Shown here piece after piece: positions 43,236-53,078 of a stretch of 64,000 nucleotides of DNA. Under the pieces are notes generated by a model. That model searched no databases. It had not been told where the DNA came from and saw nothing but the letters and a program-made list of their open reading frames with translations. The stretch is from Bryobacterales bacterium (GTDB lineage: Bacteria > Acidobacteriota > Terriglobia > Bryobacterales > Bryobacteraceae): contig CAWJGZ010000001.1 in assembly GCA_963842505.1 (NCBI GenBank), positions 2,025,919 to 2,089,918 on the forward strand. The letters are read 5' to 3'. How positions within the stretch are numbered: position 1 is the stretch's first letter; each line of letters opens with the position of its first letter. A program made the translations under genes and the position numbers.

Positions 43236-44759
43236 ATGCGAATTTGCCTGCTACTCGCCTTCGCGGCCGCCCTGCACGGCGCCGTCATCCGTGGTAGCGT
43301 AGTGGAGAACCAGACCGGGCATTTCCTGGCGCGCGCCGTCGTCGGCCTGGAACCCGTGGCCGGCAGCGCCGGCCCCCACCTTTCGGTCCGCACCAACTCC
43401 AGCGGCTTTTTCGAATTCGCCAACCTCCCGGCGGGAACCTACCTGGTCACTGCCGCCCGCCATACCTTCGCGCCAGTCGAGTACGGCCAGAAACACTGGC
43501 GCGCCTCCGGCGTCCCCATCGTCATCGCGGAGAACGATTCCACCATCCTCAATATCCGGCTGCCGCGTCTCGGCTCCATCACCGGAACTTTGTTGGACGA
43601 AAACGATGTTGGCCTTCCCGATCACGAGGTCGCCATCTACACCGATTCGCGCCCTCCCATGCTGCTCACCAGAGCCCGCACCGACGACCGCGGCATGTAC
43701 CGCTTCTTCGCCCTCGACCCCGGCGCCTACCTCATCCGCACCATGAGCAAGAGCGATGAAGAAGGCTCCTATCTGCCCACTTTCTACAAGGACGTCGCCC
43801 TGCTCGATCAGGCCATTGCCATTGACGTCACCCTTGACCAGCAGGTCGACAACGTCAATATCCGCCCCGCGCCAGGGCGTCTCTACACGGTCGCCGGCCG
43901 CGCCATCTCCCCCAACCGCGACCCGGTCACCGTCAATCTCGTCTCCGACATGGGAAGCGAACTCGCCGACGTGGATTCCGCCGGCAATTTCCACTTCAAC
44001 CCCGCCGCCCCGGGACAATATGAATTGCAGGCGGTATCCGCCAACGGCCGCTTCAATACCGCTACCTACCAATCCCTCAGCCTGGATCGCGACCAACCCA
44101 ACCTCTCCCTCGGGCTGGCGATGTACCCGACCATCCAATTTGCCTTCGAGGATACCCACGGTGCGCCCATCGACGGGCGCCAGTTTCAGGTGCTCTTCCG
44201 CCACAAGGACCTTGCCGGAGTTGGCAAGCCCGAAACGATGCGCGGCGTTCCCGAGACTGTGCGCGGCGTTCCCGCCCGCACCGGCATCCTGCCCGGCCGC
44301 TATGATGTCGCGCTCGGCCCGACACCTGCCTGGTACGTGGTGAGTGTCTCAGGCCCGCGGCCTGAGGGCCTCGACCCGGGCCGCGCCGATGGATGGAACG
44401 AAATCATCCTCCCGCCCAACACTTCGAACACCATCAAGTTCGTGCTGTCTTCATCTCCCGGCACGCTGCATGGCGTGGTGCGCGATACCGGCGGCGCGCC
44501 GGTCGTGGGCATACCGGTCTTCCTCGAAGCCTACGACCTTGAGCGCCGCAAGCGTGTGAAAGATTTCCAGATTTTCCGCACCGATATCAACGGCCAGTAC
44601 CATTTCACCGGCCTCGCGCCCGGCGCGTATCGGCTGCTCGCCACCTTTGATTACCGTACTCCCGACGCCCAAGTCATGGAACTCCCCGTCGTCAAGACGG
44701 CCAGGGCGGATGAGGGCCGCGACGTGATCCAGGATCTGGAGCAATACGTCGTCCACTAA
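43236..44759 (+). CDS. secreted protein with multiple carboxypeptidase-regulatory-like domains
   Basis: 507 aa with a signal peptide. Contains IRGSVVENQTGHFLARAVV..., TNSSGFFEFANLPAGTYLV and similar repeats. Confidence 0.65.
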   Translation: MRICLLLAFAAALHGAVIRGSVVENQTGHFLARAVVGLEPVAGSAGPHLSVRTNSSGFFEFANLPAGTYLVTAARHTFAPVEYGQKHWRASGVPIVIAENDSTILNIRLPRLGSITGTLLDENDVGLPDHEVAIYTDSRPPMLLTRARTDDRGMYRFFALDPGAYLIRTMSKSDEEGSYLPTFYKDVALLDQAIAIDVTLDQQVDNVNIRPAPGRLYTVAGRAISPNRDPVTVNLVSDMGSELADVDSAGNFHFNPAAPGQYELQAVSANGRFNTATYQSLSLDRDQPNLSLGLAMYPTIQFAFEDTHGAPIDGRQFQVLFRHKDLAGVGKPETMRGVPETVRGVPARTGILPGRYDVALGPTPAWYVVSVSGPRPEGLDPGRADGWNEIILPPNTSNTIKFVLSSSPGTLHGVVRDTGGAPVVGIPVFLEAYDLERRKRVKDFQIFRTDINGQYHFTGLAPGAYRLLATFDYRTPDAQVMELPVVKTARADEGRDVIQDLEQYVVH

Positions 44760-45286
44760 GCAGGCGACCTCAGGATAGCTTCGGCCGCGGTGATATGGGC
44801 AGCGCCAAAGTGTCCGGAAATGGGACTAGGTTCGTTTCGCACGGCGAGGCCGCGCCTAAAAACATGATGAAAAGAAACGAGTTCGGCTTGCGCGGAGCGA
44901 AGATTGGGGGGAGTTTTTCGAGAGTTGACGTGATTGGCCTCGATTCTGATGGAGTGACGACATAGTGATCCTTGAACGTGTTCGGAAATGAAAAAGGGAT
45001 AGGTCGCGAAGGCCCCATCCCGGTTTCAGGGTAACAGACCGGGAGTCGGAGTTCGGGTTGAGAAGAGCGGAAGTGACTGAGAAATAACGCTAAAATGTTC
45101 AGGTTTTATTTGAACCGTGAGGGTAATCTTGGCCGAACTTCCACGAGCCGGCGTTTCGGTCAAATGTGCGAGAGCCGCAATTCCGAGCAGACCTAAGCAA
45201 CGGAAAAATCGCGCAGTTCAGTGGAGTGAACCCCAAAATTGAGACAGCGTAAAAAGTGACACTCTGAATTGAATGGAGGGAGTGTC

Positions 45287-45688
45287 ATGGCAAAGAGGAA
45301 GAAAGGCGGCGGTGGCAAGCATGTGGTCCATCCCCCCGAGTTCAAACTCCAGGCAGTAGAACGGATGGAGGCGGGAGAGTGCGTATCGGCGCTGAGCCGG
45401 GAACTGGGAGTGCGCCGAAAGCTGTTCTACGAGTGGCGAGAGAGGTTTCGCCAACGGGGGATACCGGCACTGGAACGCCGGCCTGGCCGGGAACGCTTGG
45501 GCGTCGAGGAACGCCAACGCCGGGTGCGCGAAAACGCGGCGCGGCAGATTGCCGAGCTGGAACGCAAGGTGGGGCGGCAAGCGCTGCTGATTGATTTTTT
45601 GCAGCGAGCCTTCAAGCGTGTAGAGGGTTTGCGCCAGAACAACAACAAGCTTGGCGCGAAGGCATCTACCGGGAGATCCGACGCATGA
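45287..45688 (+). CDS. IS3-family transposase OrfA (HTH)
   Basis: I prefer the ATG at 45287, with GGAGGGAG upstream (MAKRKKGGGGKHVVHPPEFKLQAVERMEAGECVSALSRELGVRRKLFYEWRERF). The C-terminal part looks like a leucine zipper. Confidence 0.85.
   Translation: MAKRKKGGGGKHVVHPPEFKLQAVERMEAGECVSALSRELGVRRKLFYEWRERFRQRGIPALERRPGRERLGVEERQRRVRENAARQIAELERKVGRQALLIDFLQRAFKRVEGLRQNNNKLGAKASTGRSDA
45595..45601 (+). promoter_or_regulatory. candidate -1 programmed ribosomal frameshift heptamer T_TTT_TTG
   Basis: In orfA phase the codons read gaT TTT TTG. The -1 frame is open from here (FFAASLQACRGFAPEQQQAWREGIYREIRRMMPLEG...) into orfB. Confidence 0.55.
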
Positions 45689-46530
45689 TGCCGCTTGAAG
45701 GCGATGGCAGCATTGCCGCGTTGTGCGCGGCGGGCCAGGTGAGCCGGGCCGGGTTCTATCGTGAGTTCGGTGCTCACAGTCCCCGCCAAGCCGAGACCGA
45801 ACTGCGGGACCGGATCCAGCGCGTGGCCTTGGCTCACCGCTGCTACGGGTACCGGAGAGTCACGGCGGAGTTGCACCGCCAGGGGTTCGTAGTCAACCAC
45901 AAATGCGTGGCGGGATGGCTTCGCGAAGACAATCTACTCAGCGTGCGTCACAAGAAATTTGTGCTGACGACGGAATCGCGGCACGGCTTCGTGCGGTACC
46001 CCAACTTGGCCGGCCGCCTGGCGCTCACGGGTATCAACCAACTCTGGGTTGCCGACATCACTTATATCCGGCTCAGTGAGGAGTTCGTCTATCTGGCGGT
46101 TGTGCTCGACGCCTACTCACGGCGAGTGGTGGGTTGGGAGTTAGGGCCCACGTTACAGGCCAGTCTCCCCTTGCAGGCGCTCGACCGGGCGTTGGCCGAC
46201 CGGGCGATCGAACCCGGGATCGTCCACCACTCCGATCAAGGGGTGCAGTACTGCTGTCCGGACTACGTTGGCAGATTACTGGATCACGGGTTCGTGATCA
46301 GTATGAGCCGCGCTGGCACGCCCTACGACAACGCCAAGGCGGAATCCTTTATGAAGACCCTAAAATCCGAAGAGGTCTACCTCCATCAGTACCGCGACCA
46401 GGACGAAGCGCGCGTCTCCATGCGGCGCTTCATTGAGGAGGTCTACAACCGAAAACGGCTGCACTCCGCACTGGGCTACAGGCCGCCGGAGGAGTTCGAA
46501 GCCGCCGCGGGGACCGGAGGCCCACAATGA
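45685..46530 (+). CDS. IS3-family transposase OrfB (rve integrase core), probably expressed as an OrfAB fusion
   Basis: 281 aa in the -1 frame relative to orfA. DDE core: WVADITYIRL, LAVVLDAYSRRVVGW, VHHSDQGVQY, AGTPYDNAKAESFMKTLKSEEV and RLHSALGYRPPEEFE. Confidence 0.9.
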   Translation: MMPLEGDGSIAALCAAGQVSRAGFYREFGAHSPRQAETELRDRIQRVALAHRCYGYRRVTAELHRQGFVVNHKCVAGWLREDNLLSVRHKKFVLTTESRHGFVRYPNLAGRLALTGINQLWVADITYIRLSEEFVYLAVVLDAYSRRVVGWELGPTLQASLPLQALDRALADRAIEPGIVHHSDQGVQYCCPDYVGRLLDHGFVISMSRAGTPYDNAKAESFMKTLKSEEVYLHQYRDQDEARVSMRRFIEEVYNRKRLHSALGYRPPEEFEAAAGTGGPQ

Positions 46531-46810
46531 AGAGGACATTCTGTATTGGGGCTGTGCCCCCAAACCCCCGGGATTTATCGCTTTTTCTCAGCCAGAATGG
46601 TTCACGAAGGGGGGCGGCGCTACCGCCCCCTGGGCCATTCCGGACGCTGAGACGGTCGCTCGGGTTGCTTCCCAGCATTGCCCTATCCCGCCCGGCTCAG
46701 GTATCATCAGTCTGCAACAGATTTTTTCCGCTGGCTACGGAAAACCAGCGAACGGCAACCTGTCACCTTTTACCTTGTCTCACCGACGGGGTTCACTCCA
46801 TCAGGCTGAC

Positions 46811-46913
46811 CCATTTTCCCCGAACCGTTTTCCCGTTTTCCCGCGTTTTCCGACCCGTTTTCCCGACCCGTTTTCCCGTTTTCCCCCCCGTTTTCCGCGT
46901 TTTCCGTTTTCGG
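46811..46913 (+). repeat. array of about 10 degenerate direct repeats of (C)CGTTTTCC with 8-13 bp spacing
   Basis: The sequence reads CCATTTTCC..CCGTTTTCCCGTTTTCCCGCGTTTTCCGACCCGTTTTCCCGACCCGTTTTCCCGTTTTCCCCCCCGTTTTCCGCGTTTTCCGTTTTCGG. It lies 60 bp upstream of the 46974 start. Confidence 0.85.
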
Positions 46914-46973
46914 ACCCATACGTACGGATGGAATTGGTGACTGCCCGAAAGCGACCCTCAAGAGGATATTGCT

Positions 46974-49151
46974 TTGGCCAACGTAGCACGCGAACATGTT
47001 CACATAATGAGGAACGAAGCGGAGGTATTCGCCGACTTAAAAGTATTGTGCCGGTCATCGGGCTACGTCCATGCCCTTGCCAACATCTGTTTTCGTGACA
47101 ACATCGTTCGCTATTCAGGGCAAATGCGCCCGAAGGACATGTTGCCAATGTTCTCACCCGACCACCTCATCCGCACCGAGATTTCCACGCTCATAGGCCT
47201 GATGATCCAGGGCGAGATGGACTGGACGATGCCGTCGCCCCACGTGGTGCAAGAGCAGATGGACCGCACGGACGCCTTACTCAAGGAGTTGCATGAGACA
47301 TTTCTTCCATCCATGTCCGGCGCAATAGCGGAACAGGCCAAGGCGCCGGTTAAGGACCTCGAACTACTGGGCCGGGGCGAGTTCCTGCGAGAAATGATCT
47401 TTTACGGCGGGGAGTCGGCCTACAGCTTCCAGTATCGCGATTTCGCGCCCCCAAAATACGCAGCAGATGACGCCTGGTTGAAGGCGAACCGGGGATTCTC
47501 GATCTTCGATTCCAGAACCATCGCTCAAGCAATTGCGCGGCTGCAGGAACAGAAGCTCATGGACACCGTGGCCCACATGGCGACGATCCCACCGGAGCAG
47601 TGGAGCATCCTCCCCGGCTACACCTTTTCCGCGGGAGAAGTTGCCGCGGCATCCGGGGTGGTGGAATCAACCGTGGGGGCCGTACTAAACGCTTTCGCTC
47701 TGGCCCCGGGCGAAAAGAAGGAAACCTTTCGGGCGATTGATGATTTCAACGTAGTTAACGCGGCTCCCCTGCTCAGATTCAACGGTGAGTTCGTTCTATT
47801 CCAGTCGTACAGCCTCGTTGAAGCGCTCTATGAATCGCCGTTCTACTGGATGGTCGTCGACAAGGCGTATGAGTCCACTGCAATGCAAAACCGGGGGCGA
47901 TTTACGGAGACCTTCTGTCGTGATCGGCTCGAGCTGGTCTTCGGCAAGGCGCGCGTCCACACGAACGTGGATATTTTCGAATCAAAGGCAAGGAAGGTCG
48001 GTGAAATCGACGTTCTCGTGCTCTTTGGCGACCGTGCCGTGATCGTTCAGGCGAAATCCAAGCGGCTGACGCTGGAATCGCGTAAAGGCAATGATGGCCG
48101 GATTCGAGACGATTTCAAGAAGAGCGTCCAGGATTCGTACGATCAGGGCCTCACGTGTGCTCAGAAAATCACTGACCCCGAGGTCAAGCTTGTTGGGCCC
48201 GACGGTCGGGAGATCCGTGTTCCAGACCGTGTGTCCGAAATCTACATTCTGTGCGTGGTCGCCGACCACTATCCCTCACTGCACTTTCAGTCCCGCCAGT
48301 TCCTCAAGTACACACAAACCGACGTCATCCAGGCTCCTATGGTGCTGGATGTTTTTACGCTGGATGCGATCACGGAGATGCTCCCTTCGCCGCTGCGCTT
48401 TCTTAGCTATATCAACCGCCGGGTCGGCTACACGGAACGGCTGATGGCAACGCACGAGACGGTCATTCTTTCCTATCACCTGAAGAAGAATCTGTGGATT
48501 GAGGAGAACGTCGACATGCTCATGCTGGGAGACGACATCTCCGTGGACCTCGATGTTGCCATGGCGGTGCGGCGCGACGGCGTGAATGGTCAGCGGACGC
48601 CTGACGGTATTCTCACGCGCCTGAATTCGACCACCGTGGGGCGCATCATCACGGTCATTGAGAGCCGTCCCGAGCCTGGAGTGATCGATTTCGGGTTCCT
48701 GCTGCTGGCGATGAGTGGAAAGGCGACAACAGACGCATGTACGGGCATCGATCGGGCCGCCAAGCTGGCGCGCAGAGATGGACAGACGCACGACATATCC
48801 CTCGGGTTCGATTCGCCCATGAGTGGATTCACAGTGCATTGCAGCGCCGATCCGCTACCGGTGGCGGAGGCTCGACTACGGGGTCACTGCGAGCTTCGTA
48901 AATATCGGCAAAAGGCGAAGACCTGGTTCGGTGTCTGCCTTCATCCAACCGATCAATCACTCAGGTTCGGGTTCAAGCTCGATTACGAGTGGCAACAGGA
49001 TACCCGCATGGAACGAGTGGCGCACGACGCTGCCCAGCCTGCCAATCTCAGCGAAGCAATCGAGGCGAGCACGAAGCGGTCGAAAATTGGACGCAACGAC
49101 CCGTGTCCATGTGGCAGCGGGCGCAAGTACAAGAGATGCCACGGCCAATGA
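46974..49151 (+). CDS. orphan 725-aa protein with a central NERD / PD-(D/E)xK-like nuclease motif and a C-terminal SEC-C zinc-binding motif
   Basis: TTG start with AAGAGGA 7 nt upstream; an alternative ATG lies at 47007. Contains [22 protein letters not shown] (48000..48056), which fits the NERD/restriction-fold D...(E/Q)xK pattern. The C-terminal [18 protein letters not shown] is a canonical SEC-C motif. I recognise nothing in the rest of the protein. Confidence 0.75.
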
Positions 49152-49444
49152 GCCGGCTGGGACAGCCATTGGCAACAATGCTCCTGTTGAAGTCAAAAAG
49201 TCGATTCGCAGCATGAGGCATGAAGGTTCGTCACTTGGCCGATAACGCCCGTTGATGCCATGTGGCCGGGCAAAAGGGAACTCCTCTTACTCGAGTTTAT
49301 AGAGCGCAGGTGACCGAGGCGAACGCCTGGATCGAGTGGAATGCGCAATGCGATGGGCATGCGTAGCTCGGGCCGACAGCGCGGTCCCGACCACGATGCC
49401 GTGCAGTAGGTCACACAGTTGGCCCCGGTCGTTCGTAGTCCAAA

Positions 49445-49788
49445 ACCGGCCGGGAGGCCGGTCGCTGGAGTTTCTGTGTTTTCAAGCTCGTTCATTAAGG
49501 CCAACTAGTGCCGCCGGCGGTCTTGCCGCCGGTGTCTTGTGCGCGCTGGACCATCGCCGCTCTTTCTTCCGGGTGACGAAGATGGGGAAGTTCTCAGGGA
49601 CCCAATGGGCGGTGTTCGGCGCCAGTACATATTGAAAAAGAACCGGCGGCGAAGACCGCCGGCGCTACAAGTCAAGTTGTGTTTTCGACCCGGGAATGTC
49701 ATCCACAGATGCAGAAATTCTGGGGGCAGGCTTCGCCTGCCGTGACCCGGTTTCCAGTGGGTCCAAGACCGGCCGGGAGGCCGGTCTT
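49445..49788. repeat. cluster of five short GC-rich hairpins in a gene-free stretch
   Basis: The five are ACCGGCC-GGGA-GGCCGGT (49445..49462), CCGGCGG-TCTTG-CCGCCGG (49514..49532), CCGGCGG-CGAAGA-CCGCCGG (49643..49662), GGCAGGC-TTC-GCCTGCC (49725..49741) and AAGACCGGCC-GGGA-GGCCGGTCTT (49765..49788). The last sits 3 nt beyond the stop of 49791..50561 and is a likely terminator. Confidence 0.75.
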
Positions 49789-49790
49789 AC

Positions 49791-50561
49791 TCAGATCCTG
49801 ACCGGGTTGTCCAGCACGAACGTCAGGCGGGTTTCCGAAGGCACCCGCACTCTCTGCCCGCTGGTGACCATTTCCACGGCCGTGCCGCCCGCGGCTCCCG
49901 CTCCCAGGCCGATCGCCGCGCCTTTGCCACCACCCAAAATGCCGCCCAGCACCGCGCCGCCTATCGCGCCTCCGCCAATCGTCCCGGCCGACCGCCCCGC
50001 TCGATCCGCACTCTTCTCCCTCACGGTCTGTGTCTGGATGTCCACCATCTGCCCGTTCACCCGCACCGACATCATGGCAAGCGCCAGTTCCGCGCGGCCC
50101 GCAATCTTCCCCGATTGCTTGGAGTCAACCAGCTTCAGCACCACGTCCGCGCCGCGCGGAATGATGGTCTGGCCACTCGCATCCACCACCGGCGCGTCCA
50201 GGCTCCCGGCGAAACTCTGTCCCACTTGCGCCGTTTGCGAATCCACCGAATCGATCATGCGGACGGCGAAATTCGTGCCCGCGGGCAGCGTGATCCCCAT
50301 CATCGCCTGCTGCGCCGCGGCCTCGCGCCGTTCCTCTCGCCGGACCGCCGGCTCTTCCACCGGGGCGTTGTTCCCAAATTCGATGCGCGCCACGTCCGAC
50401 ACGTCCAACGTCTGAATCTGATCGCCAATCTCGACCCTCACCTGGCGCGCCGATCCGCCCAGATAAGTGCCCTGAATCACCCGCCCGTCCTTCATTGTGA
50501 TCGTATCGGCAAGGCCGGCCGTCGCCGCTACGAAAGCCACCGCGATGTACAGTAGACGCAT
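49791..50561 (-). CDS. secreted glycine-zipper protein (paralogous to the N-terminal module of 10899..12572)
   Basis: Start at the ATG at 50561 with GGAG upstream (MRLLYIAVAFVAATAGLA). Contains GGGAIGGAVLGGILGGGKGAAIGLGAGAAGG. The upstream extension of the track ORF runs into the tandem repeat. Confidence 0.65.
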   Translation of the reverse strand: MRLLYIAVAFVAATAGLADTITMKDGRVIQGTYLGGSARQVRVEIGDQIQTLDVSDVARIEFGNNAPVEEPAVRREERREAAAQQAMMGITLPAGTNFAVRMIDSVDSQTAQVGQSFAGSLDAPVVDASGQTIIPRGADVVLKLVDSKQSGKIAGRAELALAMMSVRVNGQMVDIQTQTVREKSADRAGRSAGTIGGGAIGGAVLGGILGGGKGAAIGLGAGAAGGTAVEMVTSGQRVRVPSETRLTFVLDNPVRI

Positions 50562-50617
50562 AAGTTTCTCCGTCTGGTTACTCCTGAAGTTTAACTCACG
50601 CTGGTGCTCCGCAGGGA

Positions 50618-50822
50618 CCGCTCTCTTACGTTCGCGGCTCGGATGGGTGCTCTTGCGTTCGGGGGTCGGATGGCGGGTCGGATTGCGAGTCGGATTGGTA
50701 ACCCGCAAATACCGCTCTCTTACGTTCGCGGCTCCGATGGGTGCTCTTGCGTTCGCGGGTCGGATGGCGGGTCGGACCCGCGGGTCGGATGGGTGATTTT
50801 ACGTTCGCGGGTCGGATTGGAG
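50618..50822. repeat. 94-bp tandem duplication with nested CGTTCGCGGGTCGGATGG-like subrepeats
   Basis: Unit 1 starts at 50618 and unit 2 at 50712. The first 65 nt differ at 2 positions (CCGCTCTCTTACGTTCGCGGCTC[G/C]GATGGGTGCTCTTGCGTTCG[G/C]GGGTCGGATGGCGGGTCGGA). There are about 7 copies of a GGTCGGATGG-type core. The last copy supplies the final codons of 50799..51665. Confidence 0.85.
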
Positions 50823-51665
50823 TCGCGCCGATTCCACCACCATCCGGCCCCGTTTCAATGCCTCGCGGTAAATCACTCGCCGTTGCGCGCGCGTGTAGCC
50901 GCTATTGCCCCAGTAGTAATGTTCCAGCCCCTTACCGACCACGAATGTTCCGGCGTAGGCGATCGCGCCCTTGGGAATCAGCCCGCCGCCCAGCGGGATC
51001 TTGCCCACCAGTTCGCGGGCCAGCGCCCGCCACCCGAAGGCGCCCGAGACAATCGAAAGGATGGCGCCCTTCTGCTTGGCGAAACCGGCATCCCGTCCGC
51101 ACGCCGCCGCGATCAGGAATGCCATGCGGATCTGGTTGGCCGTCAGAATCGCCGTGTCGGATGTGAATTCCCCGAACGCCCACGGCAACTCCAACAGGCT
51201 CGGCACCACGTCCGGCAGCGCCGTCGCCACCGCGAACAGCGCGTTCTCCTGCGCAATCGTGTGGATCGTCCGATCCACCACCGAACGCCGGAAGGCCGGG
51301 TATTGCCGTCCGAGCGGCAGCCACAGATCGTCGTTGCCGTCCAGAATCGCGCCGACGGTCGCCGCCGGGTTGTCGCGGTAAAACGTGTATGTTCCCGGCG
51401 GCGCCGCGATCCCTTGCTCGAACAAAATCAGGTCCACCTGGTCCGGTACCACCGCGTCGTCCGCCCGATGCACCTGGTCCAGCAGATACGTGCGGTCTTC
51501 CAGCGACCCTTCCGGCGGCGCCAGGAAATCCTCCATCTCCGCGTACGCCGCGTCGCTTGACGCCACCAGGCCGAAACGCAGCGGCCGCCGCGCGCGGCGG
51601 CGCACTTCTTCCGGGTTCAACAGCGAGACGGCGGCGCGCGCCTGTTTCAGTGCCTTCATTATCAT
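50799..51665 (-). CDS. hypothetical protein with a DUF697-like C-terminal region
   Basis: Start at the ATG at 51665 or 51659, 6-12 nt after the upstream stop. Contains TAILTANQIRMAFLIAAACGRD...ELVGKIPLGGGLIPKGAIAYAGTFVVGKGLEHYY, which resembles the DUF697 pattern. The call is moderate to weak. Confidence 0.5.
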   Translation of the reverse strand: MIMKALKQARAAVSLLNPEEVRRRARRPLRFGLVASSDAAYAEMEDFLAPPEGSLEDRTYLLDQVHRADDAVVPDQVDLILFEQGIAAPPGTYTFYRDNPAATVGAILDGNDDLWLPLGRQYPAFRRSVVDRTIHTIAQENALFAVATALPDVVPSLLELPWAFGEFTSDTAILTANQIRMAFLIAAACGRDAGFAKQKGAILSIVSGAFGWRALARELVGKIPLGGGLIPKGAIAYAGTFVVGKGLEHYYWGNSGYTRAQRRVIYREALKRGRMVVESARLQSDPRT

Positions 51666-51670
51666 GAGAA

Positions 51671-52939
51671 TCAGTGAGGCGGCTCGGCCCCTCGGAGTCG
51701 AAACATCGTCCGCAGCCCCTTCCGCCATTCTACCGCCAGCCCGATTCGCTCCACATCGATCGACGGCGAATAATACTGCAAGATGGTTTCCGACGACGGA
51801 TGGAATTCCAGGCACGGCGACACCAGCAGGATCCTGGGCGCCTCCGGCCGCAGCTCAATCCCCGGAAAATATCCGTATGCCGCAAACTCGCCGCGGTCCA
51901 GGTGCCATTTCACCCGGATCCAATAGTCCAGCGCCTGCAAGGGCAGGTGCAGATCGGCCGTCGCCTTCAGTTCCACCACCGCCAGCCGCCCGGCCCGGTC
52001 CACCGCGAGCAGGTCGAGAATCCCCCGATCCCCGCCGGCGAACGCCGGCACCTGCCCGTAGACCGGCTGGTGGCGCAGATCCGCATCCAACTTTTCGATC
52101 TCCGCGCGCACCCGCGCTTCGAGCATCGCCTCTGGATACTCCGGCCCGCGCGGCGGCGGCGCTTCCGGCCCTTTGCAAAGCTCGAGGCGCGTATCCAGGT
52201 TCCCGTGATCTTTCGGGTCCACCCCCACTACGTAGTCCTGGCCGGTGTAAGCGAACAGTTCGAATCGCGCCGCTGCCGGGTTCAGCGATAGCAGCCGCAG
52301 CGCCGCCGCCTGCTCCCGCCCGCTTGGCACATACAGCGCCAGCCCTTCCACCGTCAGCCGCCGTTCGCGTGCCCGCAAATAAGATAGCCAGATCAGGCCG
52401 AAGGAAACCACCGCCGCCCAATCCCCTTCCGGCGGGCACGCAATCGCCGCCCACCCATGCTGTCCATGCTTCAGGAATGCGCGCGGGAACGCCGGCGACA
52501 GGCTGAATTCCAGATTCGCTTCGGCGCTCAGCTCCGCCAGGTTCCATTCCGGAAACTGCCTCCGCAGAAAGAGCCGGAACCGCTCGCGAAACACCAGCCG
52601 CCCGGCCCGCTGCCCCAACTCCGCCCCTGCGCGCCGATCCAGATCCACGAGAAACACTACTCCCTGGCGCCGCGCGAAGTGCTCCACGATGATTTCCAGC
52701 CGCGCTGGCGAAGATTGCTTAATCCCCATCACACGCCGCGCCAGGTTGCGGGTTCGATCCCACGCCTGCAAAGTCAGCCGCCCGCCGCGCATTTCGAGCG
52801 AGAAATTATCGCCGCCAATCGCCAGCAACTCCTCGCCCGGTTCCAGCAGCGCGGGTTGCCGGGAGTTCTTTAAGAAGGCCTCAATCGCCAAACGGGTCTC
52901 TTCGGCGCCGCGGCCTTCCACCCGTGTAACGCGCAACAT
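51671..52939 (-). CDS. hypothetical protein with a C-terminal NucS/DUF91-like PD-(D/E)xK nuclease motif
   Basis: Start chosen at the ATG at 52939 (MLRVTRVEG...). The C-terminal third contains GILDLLAVDRAGRLAVVELKATADLHLPLQALDYW, the D...ExK plus Q..Y pattern of the NucS/EndoMS-type fold. I do not recognise the N-terminal ~280 aa. Confidence 0.55.
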   Translation of the reverse strand: MLRVTRVEGRGAEETRLAIEAFLKNSRQPALLEPGEELLAIGGDNFSLEMRGGRLTLQAWDRTRNLARRVMGIKQSSPARLEIIVEHFARRQGVVFLVDLDRRAGAELGQRAGRLVFRERFRLFLRRQFPEWNLAELSAEANLEFSLSPAFPRAFLKHGQHGWAAIACPPEGDWAAVVSFGLIWLSYLRARERRLTVEGLALYVPSGREQAAALRLLSLNPAAARFELFAYTGQDYVVGVDPKDHGNLDTRLELCKGPEAPPPRGPEYPEAMLEARVRAEIEKLDADLRHQPVYGQVPAFAGGDRGILDLLAVDRAGRLAVVELKATADLHLPLQALDYWIRVKWHLDRGEFAAYGYFPGIELRPEAPRILLVSPCLEFHPSSETILQYYSPSIDVERIGLAVEWRKGLRTMFRLRGAEPPH

Positions 52940-53078
52940 GCAACCGCATGGTAACGCGCCGCAACGCAAGTGGGGCGGGCAATCCCGCTCCGCACCCTGC
53001 TTTCACCCGGCTCTTCCCAGTGCGTCAGTTCTTGCACCTTGGCTTGCGCTCGTCCGCCTACCAAAGCAAAATGAACCC

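Follow-up and report, generated by a model that had tools for sequence, protein, structure and literature searches.

What does a large protein do that joins a nuclease core to a SecA-type metal-binding tail and is encoded by a gene without any partner? The question is raised by one gene in a 64,000-nucleotide stretch of DNA from a Bryobacterales bacterium (Acidobacteriota; assembly GCA_963842505.1, contig CAWJGZ010000001.1, positions 2,025,919 to 2,089,918 of the forward strand), hereafter called the window. An earlier note, made from the sequence alone, had described the gene as an orphan coding for a NERD-like nuclease with a SEC-C motif, next to an IS3-family insertion sequence (IS), and had proposed a single-gene defence or mobile-element function. 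The domain reading, in which an orphan gene encodes a NERD-type nuclease of restriction fold with a SEC-C tail, is supported by the analysis described here, and a candidate single-gene defence nuclease of new architecture is credible but unproven. The reading preferred here, to which we give a probability of about one half and which is argued from context and analogy, is that one polypeptide acts by itself as a conflict (defence-type) nuclease and that its gene spreads horizontally as a one-gene cassette.

The gene and its family

The open reading frame (ORF) extends from a TTG at 46974 to 49151 on the plus strand (725 aa) and appears in exactly this form in the ORF listing, as the earlier note had it. 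The TTG is probably not the start. Homologues are nearly all ~714 aa long and their alignments begin at residue 12 of the 725-aa ORF; the true start is therefore most likely the ATG at 47007, 33 nt downstream. The 33 nt between TTG and ATG are variable among relatives and show no codon-position pattern. Residue numbers below refer to the 714-aa form, and adding 11 converts them to the 725-aa numbering used previously. The gene does form an AT-richer islet, with a G+C content of 0.57 as compared to 0.62-0.66 in the surrounding window.

47007..49151, plus strand: coding sequence, 714 aa from the probable ATG (the TTG at 46974 would add 11 residues), based on homologue lengths and alignments

The family is large. 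A word-indexed search gave more than 2,100 matches, the best 120 of which are all full-length with 52-95% identity. With a cutoff of E<1e-30, an exhaustive search of 1.84 billion cluster representatives recovered at least 660 clusters (50% identity), whose proteins are, with few exceptions, 700-740 aa and collinear with the query. When GTDB was scanned with two peptide patterns, one genome per species, at least 229 of ~185,000 species, from about nine phyla, were found to carry a relative, a number that is a lower bound. The carriers include Acidobacteriota, Alpha-, Beta- and Gammaproteobacteria, Desulfobacterota, Nitrospirota, Nitrospinota, Chloroflexota, Firmicutes, Cyanobacteria and Bacteroidota. 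The distribution is broad yet very sparse and patchy. Full-length copies are present on ~30 plasmids; of the 40 plasmid records with a match, 22 are typed as conjugative. The Prokaryotic Genome Annotation Pipeline (PGAP) names the plasmid copies either "SEC-C metal-binding domain-containing protein" or "NERD domain-containing protein". No full-length homologue was found in 50,697 phage records, in which the matches are to the tail only.

Domain organization

The protein can be divided into six parts, as modelled by AlphaFold2 (AF2) and assigned from sequence matches and conservation:

47007..47606, plus strand: N-terminal all-helical domain, aa 1-200 (AF2 secondary structure and conservation; no family match)
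47610..47795, plus strand: small helix-turn-helix/winged-helix-like module with a beta-hairpin, aa 202-263 (AF2 pattern)
47799..48431, plus strand: NERD/Can2-type PD-(D/E)xK nuclease domain, aa 265-475 (NERD, Can2 profile, Foldseek, invariant residues)
47907-47909, 48003-48005, 48009-48011, 48048-48050 and 48054-48056, plus strand: codons of the catalytic candidates E301, E333, D335, Q348 and K350, respectively
48444..48986, plus strand: C-terminal helical and small alpha/beta domain, aa 480-660 (predicted local distance difference test score, pLDDT, mostly 85-94)
48987..49088, plus strand: flexible linker, aa 661-694 (mean column conservation 0.19, pLDDT 52-62)
49089..49148, plus strand: SecA-type metal-binding domain or SEC-C motif (Pfam PF02810, E 3.9e-10; C700, C702, C711, H712 and S704)

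The strongest constraint falls on the nuclease domain. Among 141 cluster representatives, with identity down to 34%, E301, D335 and K350 are conserved in all 141 and D369 is also invariant. Q348 is present in 138 (98%) and replaced by E in the other three, and E333 is present in 134 (95%) and replaced by D in the rest. The EID...QAK segment lies where the earlier note placed it: D335 and K350 are its D346 and K361, both 100% invariant, and Q348 is its Q359. In the AF2 model of the whole protein (pLDDT 85; predicted template modelling score, pTM, 0.86) E301 is on helix 289-312, E333 and D335 are on strand 329-340, and Q348 and K350 are on strand 343-350. The suspicion that the segment might not be a restriction-fold active site was not borne out, as it lies on beta-strands of a confidently modelled PD-(D/E)xK core and the best structural matches are immune nucleases. 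The predicted core fold, residue placement, invariance and fold matches place the domain in the PD-(D/E)xK superfamily, whose alpha-beta-beta-beta-alpha-beta core carries an acidic residue on its first helix, D on strand 2 and (D/E/Q)xK on strand 3. A strictly conserved E...ExD...QxK site in a NERD/Can2-type domain means that the protein is almost certainly, as far as prediction goes, an active metal-dependent phosphodiesterase.

The NERD relationship is clearer in the family than in this member. NERD (PF08378) scores 20.6 bits here over residues 308-399 (E 6.8e-4), sub-threshold against the gathering cutoff of 22.1 bits. It matches 45 of 65 diverse family members at E<=0.01, the best at 2e-8, and the family therefore lies within the NERD neighbourhood with this member just outside the Pfam cutoff. 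Thus the NERD assignment made earlier stands at the level of the family and falls short for the individual sequence. Card1_endonuc is matched by two of the 65 members, and the family profile matched Can2 (7bdv) at E 0.005 when compared to the Protein Data Bank (PDB).

Structure comparison by Foldseek gave Upx (cryo-EM structure 9wuf) as the only significant PDB match to the full-length model (E 2.1e-5, 421 columns), followed by weak matches to Can2, Cas4, HamA and McrC. With a second model, of residues 1-480 alone, Upx was again first (E 4.6e-4, 358 columns); the resemblance therefore resides in the N-terminal helical and nuclease part. The next matches to this shorter model are VC1899 and Can2 (E 3-7e-3, probability 0.94-1.0), then Cdn1, McrC, HamA and R.BspD6I. 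No significant fold match was found in the viral structure library. Weak recurrent matches to DHH-family pyrophosphatases and ABC-transporter helices were disregarded (E>0.1, root-mean-square deviation 16-29 A).

The C-terminal SEC-C motif reported earlier is confirmed. It scores 39.8 bits in Pfam against a gathering cutoff of 20.4 and aligns with C-terminal peptides of SecA and YchJ in a PDB sequence search. The profile alignment to the SecA tail extends over the linker as well. The four ligands and S704 are invariant or near-invariant, and this serine is the residue needed for iron preference in SecA-type domains. The tail was detected in 64 of the 65 diverse members by Pfam and in 117 of 140 sequences in the conservation alignment.

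Outside NERD and SEC-C, searches of Pfam, NCBIfam, PADLOC, PHROGs and PDB sequences with the whole protein returned nothing, and for these collections the earlier remark that the remainder is unmatched holds. The NCBIfam, PADLOC and PHROGs matches are confined to the last 20-40 residues. The unmatched parts are nonetheless conserved. The N-terminal domain has near-invariant residues at E58, H96, E129, Y133, Q142, Y151, D154 and W157, and these polar positions suggest a second functional site or a putative sensor. The AF2 element pattern that follows (H209-216, H220-229, H248-252, E255-258, E261-263) points to a helix-turn-helix or winged-helix module, which gives weak Foldseek matches to IclR-type regulators. 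The C-terminal domain (conserved R522, R523, G534, G607, K632, W640 and G642) has no significant sequence or fold match.

A mobile one-gene cassette

Blastn of the window between 43 and 52 kb against every fetched locus gave the borders of the mobile unit. In L001/L010, L004, L009 and L011 the homology begins at 46918-46920 and stops at 49250-49253, the flanks being unrelated; the shared DNA is shorter in L012, L014 and L015. The borders are identical in at least five contexts, all from Bryobacteraceae relatives that are 88-95% identical. Constant borders with unrelated flanks mean that the gene moves as a 2.3-kb unit, consisting of an 89-nt leader, the coding sequence and ~100 nt of 3' sequence.

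46918..49253, plus strand: single-gene mobile cassette, 2.3 kb (DNA common to 88-95%-identical relatives in unrelated contexts)
46918..47006, plus strand: conserved 5' leader, 89 nt (kept in five close relatives)
44753..49780, no strand: window-specific variable segment or hotspot, between a CarboxypepD_reg gene and a 305-aa gene (metagenomic relatives)

The leader of the five close relatives folds by RNAalifold into a hairpin at ~46926-47003 with 28 pairs, two of them compensatory, ending a few nt before the ATG. It may act as a regulatory 5' untranslated region or have a promoter role, though the evidence is thin. No convincing terminal inverted or direct repeats were found at the cassette ends, nor a recombinase within, and the junctions showed neither a target-site duplication nor a conserved insertion sequence. 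There are no tRNAs between 38 and 56 kb that could mark a tRNA integration site. An integron gene cassette was considered and rejected: the 100-nt 3' flank (ending ...AACGCCCGTT) has no RYYYAAC/GTTRRRY pair by eye, no dedicated attC model being used, and its predicted hairpins are short only.

Cassette-free versions of the insertion site were found in metagenomic relatives. L097 has an unrelated spacer of 1.09 kb between its CarboxypepD_reg and 305-aa genes, as compared to 5.03 kb in the window. In L094 only ~0.5 kb occupies the site and the CarboxypepD_reg gene is absent too. The segment 44753-49780 is therefore a variable hotspot. The CarboxypepD_reg-domain gene itself (43236-44759) is variably present, in L097 and not in L094, and the stretch from the DUF5808 gene to the 305-aa gene therefore contains several independent insertions.

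In 67 of 76 loci the gene has a lower G+C content than its flanks; the median difference is -7 points (Wilcoxon p=3e-12).

Genomic neighbourhoods

ORFs within 6 kb on either side were clustered all-against-all for 84 loci. No neighbour family occurs in more than six of them; a serine recombinase (6/84) is one of the two most recurrent. The absence of an operon partner, noted earlier for the window, thus extends over all 84 loci. Neighbourhoods differ even among 90-95%-identical relatives. Conserved housekeeping neighbourhoods among the homologues, named in the earlier note as grounds for giving up the defence idea, were looked for and none was found.

About 10 of 14 annotated contexts contain toxin-antitoxin (TA), abortive infection (Abi), recombinase or defence genes, a descriptive count made without a matched control. 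For example, one context has TacA/TacT; another Phd/ParE, CcdA/PIN, AAA_15 with DUF4276, and RhuM; another an integrase, a DDE transposase, SIR2 and ArdC; another a Y2 transposase; and yet another RelE/HTH and HEPN. In L007/L008 (8224-16256) the family member lies in an island that is bounded by two large serine recombinases and interrupts a comM (Mg-chelatase-like) gene. In the same island a 248-aa protein and a Ser/Thr protein kinase follow the family member, and TrwB-like and helix-turn-helix genes are near. The plasmid contexts include a phospholipase-D-like protein (PLD), a large AAA protein and Hxs on pAt, a KAP NTPase in Vibrio, and PDDEXK with a recombinase in Pontibacter. On the Agrobacterium tumefaciens pAt plasmid (L090, 2624-14899), represented by 19 near-identical pAt plasmids, the homologue lies next to, and in divergent orientation from, a 1,142-aa AAA protein and the PLD protein. 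A His-Xaa-Ser (HxsABC) radical S-adenosylmethionine cluster and a second large AAA protein are nearby. This pAt region may be a plasmid defence or competition island.

A census of 146 neighbour ORFs from 23 loci recovered integrases (3), HipA (2), Fic/SoFic (2), AbiEi (2) with AbiEii, PDC-S24 (2), PDC-M04 A and B, MADS components and TrwB/TrwC, together with many metabolic genes. Some contexts, such as L151, are purely metabolic.

Comparison with known systems

Neither its sequence nor its architecture makes the protein a member of Upx, Can2/Card1, Mrr or any PADLOC system, and no paper joining NERD and SEC-C or describing the family was found in the literature searched. Upx is reportedly the single-gene anti-phage system of Gao 2020. 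It is a single-protein, monomeric system in which the nuclease is required for defence and the phage large terminase is the activator; sensor domains gate the PD-(D/E)xK effector on terminase binding (PMC13099982, PMC13601566). Both proteins are single large polypeptides without a partner gene, both embed a PD-(D/E)xK effector in large, otherwise unassignable domains, and both have a broad, patchy distribution. However, 9wuf is not among the matches of PDB profile searches at E<=10. Upx has a length of 1,272 aa; it carries its canonical nuclease (D1161/E1176/K1178) at the very C-terminal end and another, minimal nuclease in the N-terminal domain, and it lacks a SEC-C tail. Its layout over ~1,270 aa, in which a sensor with the minimal nuclease is followed by a middle domain and then by the canonical nuclease, is not that of the 714-aa protein. 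By sequence, PADLOC gives only SEC-C-tail matches at E<=1, the presence of an Upx model in PADLOC v2 not having been verified.

Can2, Card1 and VC1899 share the nuclease subtype, judging from the Can2 profile match and from the Foldseek probability of 0.94-1.0 for 8q41-8q44 and 1xmx. They differ in having an N-terminal CARF sensor for cyclic oligoadenylate, a family that Pfam scans of the query and the 65 members did not find; here the N-terminal 200 residues are all-helical. In addition, this family is twice the size and not CRISPR-linked. ZwsA is a stand-alone NERD-domain RNA endonuclease (bioRxiv 10.64898/2026.04.06.716636) and, as here, a NERD-type core is part of a multidomain stand-alone effector. 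The E...D...(E/Q)xK pattern parallels E535/D567/E580/K582 of ZwsA, compared by description and not by sequence. The differences are a Gln for Glu in the xK half-motif, a sequence just under the Pfam NERD threshold, and the lack in Pfam scans of the accessory VHS, DUF647 and S4 domains of ZwsA.

A Gln in place of the usual acidic residue (D...QxK) was reportedly described for Mrr by Bujnicki and Rychlewski in 2001. That configuration, the solitary gene and a putative winged-helix module before the nuclease are shared with Mrr. However, Mrr_cat, Mrr_N and other Type IV families have no Pfam match at E<=1 in the query or at E<=0.01 in the 65 members, and the present protein is much larger, with extra conserved domains and the tail.

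The tail has its own relatives. As in SecA, a canonical CxCxSG...C(H/C) domain follows a flexible linker; the SecA C-terminal domain binds Zn or Fe, SecB, ribosomes and membranes, and YecA and YchJ share it (bioRxiv 10.1101/613315). SEC-C tails recur in defence-linked proteins: the PADLOC E1-E2, E2 and PDC-S12 models match the tail, and Rugutis is a SEC-C-bearing single gene with anti-phage activity (PMC11381338). In contrast to SecA, YecA, YchJ and Rugutis, everything upstream of the tail is unrelated here and there is no Sec-pathway context; Rugutis is 359 aa, with its motif at the N-terminus.

Models for function

If the protein is a conflict nuclease, the N-terminal helical, helix-turn-helix-like and C-terminal domains would hold the nuclease silent and sense an invader-derived cue, parallel to Upx. 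The triggered nuclease would then cut invader or cellular nucleic acid; a Can2/Card1-like fold would be compatible with DNA nicking or with single-stranded DNA (ssDNA) or RNA cleavage. The linker and the SecA-type Zn/Fe-binding domain would form a tether or an autoinhibitory tail which, by analogy to SecA, might bind SecB, ribosomes or anionic membranes.

Only context and analogy point to defence, and several observations weigh against it. The similarity to Upx is at the level of the fold only, with 10% identity and template modelling (TM) scores of 0.28/0.18, and the nuclease is central here, with QxK, followed by ~230 aa and the SecA-type tail. The seven PADLOC-DB v2.0.0 matches (E1-E2, E2, PDC-S12) all cover residues 688-725 only. 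In the census of 146 neighbours, which had no matched control, the enrichment is descriptive. L151 and the window itself have no recognisable defence genes apart from an IS. Complete E. coli genomes contain no homologue; standard screens would therefore not have sampled the family. The single-gene defence or mobile-element idea of the earlier note thus survives in part: the orphan nuclease with its tail is real and mobile, but PADLOC calls no defence system, the protein body matching no system model, and the purely metabolic contexts give it no help.

Two of the alternatives keep the protein within genetic conflict. As a more specific version of the defence idea, it could be a Type IV restriction endonuclease of the Mrr/McrC kind, in which a winged-helix-like reader recognises modified or non-self DNA and cleavage is direct, with no protein sensing or abortive infection. 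We consider this unlikely. The ID...QAK site with its Gln, the winged-helix-like module directly before the nuclease core, the presence of McrC and R.BspD6I among the fold matches, and the stand-alone gene, usual for Type IV enzymes, are all consistent with it; but the Type IV families are unmatched, Mrr-type enzymes have nothing equivalent to ~450 further conserved residues (the N-terminal helical and C-terminal domains) or to the SecA-like tail, and the winged-helix assignment is itself something that we infer. It could also be a selfish or element-maintenance nuclease acting in competition between plasmids or integrative and conjugative elements, in exclusion, in post-segregational killing or in homing-like cutting of insertion targets. 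An addiction module needs an immunity or antitoxin partner, and no conserved one exists; no duplicated target site or conserved insertion sequence was seen where the cassette joins its flanks; at 714 aa and with three further conserved domains the protein is much larger than known homing nucleases; and many copies are chromosomal, outside recognisable elements. This makes the selfish role improbable, although the sharp, identical cassette borders in unrelated contexts without an own recombinase or terminal repeats, the frequency on conjugative megaplasmids and in recombinase-bounded islands, and the absence from phage genomes would all fit it.

A third alternative is a nuclease of RNA or DNA that is associated with translation or secretion. 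Its tail would dock on ribosomes, SecB or the membrane, where the protein might cleave RNA (mRNA, rRNA or tRNA) in stress or quality control, or in ribosome-targeted abortive infection. The canonical SecA-like linker and metal-binding domain with the iron-preference Ser argues for such a role, as do the binding of SecB and ribosomes by the SecA domain (bioRxiv 10.1101/613315), the RNA endonuclease activity of the stand-alone NERD effector ZwsA (bioRxiv 10.64898/2026.04.06.716636), and the cleavage of single-stranded RNA and DNA by Can2/Card1 relatives. We nevertheless doubt it and rate it low: ~16% of the members have no tail, which is therefore not essential to the core activity, more than 90 contexts show no link to sec, ribosomal or quality-control genes, and the patchy distribution speaks against a housekeeping role. 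An ordinary housekeeping nuclease of DNA repair or recombination, an orphan in appearance only, is highly improbable. PD-(D/E)xK nucleases are common in repair and an AlkZ-like glycosylase gene lies ~3.5 kb off in the window flank, but housekeeping does not agree with patchy occurrence in at least 229 of ~185,000 species genomes, with neighbourhoods that vary at 90-95% identity, with an empty site in close relatives, or with low G+C relative to the flanks and carriage on plasmids.

A bolder proposal, to which we assign little probability, is that the protein represents a new class of single-protein immune sensor. The tail would station a gated nuclease at the ribosome, at SecB or at the inner membrane to monitor takeover of translation or secretion by an invader, and the near-invariant polar residues of the N-terminal domain would form a second site, either catalytic or for a ligand; the cassette, moreover, may move by means of its own nuclease.

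Immediate surroundings of the cassette

The DNA on either side of the cassette in the window contains repeats and an insertion sequence that do not travel with it:

45222..46800, plus strand: IS3-family insertion sequence (orfA 45269-45688, HTH_Tnp_1; orfB 45685-46530, rve)
46810..46911, no strand: degenerate CCGTTTT(C)n tandem array (Tandem Repeats Finder and repeat finder), between the IS3 end and the cassette border
49438-49463 and 49761-49786, no strand: two copies, 323 bp apart, of the REP-like (repetitive extragenic palindrome) palindrome GTCCAARACCGGCCGGGAGGCCGGTC, non-coding, downstream of the cassette

The IS3 element has terminal inverted repeats of ~40 bp (TGGAGTGAACCCC...) and is flanked by TCAG, a direct 4-bp target duplication (45218-45221 and 46801-46804); ~270 bp separate the orfB stop from its right end, which at 46800 is 117 bp left of the cassette border. 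The idea that the IS had carried the gene was rejected, as it has its own inverted repeats and TCAG duplication and is missing from relatives. It inserted independently, as a simple insertion, and is an incidental neighbour. The adjacency that the earlier note pointed out is therefore true of the window, is seen in no relative, and lends the gene no supporting context.

The CCGTTTT(C) array consists of ~12 copies with periods of 7-8, 13 and 21. It occurs nowhere else in the window, is absent from the flanks of relatives and stands in place of the ~10 bp (GGCGACT) that precede the cassette in them. The downstream palindromes and hairpins are host intergenic repeats outside the cassette. Both were considered as parts of the system and rejected, as they lie outside the DNA common to relatives; the repeat array upstream and the field of hairpins downstream, described earlier, are present but do not belong to the unit that moves with the gene. 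Further GC-rich hairpins are found at ~49508-49530 and ~49642-49663; on the minus strand the second of these resembles a terminator. An Rfam scan of 44.5-50.5 kb gave a sub-threshold match to the Burkholderia small RNA ncS16 at 49634-49712 on the minus strand (25.8 bits against a gathering cutoff of 48, E 0.079); it overlaps the terminator-like hairpin and is probably due to chance.

On the right, three consecutive minus-strand genes (49791-52969; 305, 338 and 432 aa) have no Pfam match and are syntenic in many Acidobacteriota metagenome contigs. They are an uncharacterised conserved operon adjoining the AlkZ-like glycosylase gene.

Implications

Single-protein PD-(D/E)xK conflict nucleases are already known; the combination of a NERD/Can2-type nuclease with a SecA-type tail appears, from the sequence and literature searches, to be new. 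The protein is a well-delimited candidate that is neither proven nor conceptually surprising as a system. Current annotation tools miss the family. What the tail does is a question also for Rugutis and for the E2 and PDC-S12 proteins with the same tail, and the resemblance to Upx in fold suggests that PD-(D/E)xK proteins gated by a sensor are a broader structural class than sequence searches show. The sharply bounded one-gene cassette is a tractable example for the study of how orphan defence genes travel from one hotspot to another. If the monitoring sensor or the nuclease-dependent movement of the cassette were true, a new principle would be involved and not another nuclease effector. If the family is a defence system, it would add a widespread single-gene immune nuclease, with at least 660 clusters in about nine phyla and many copies on conjugative plasmids.

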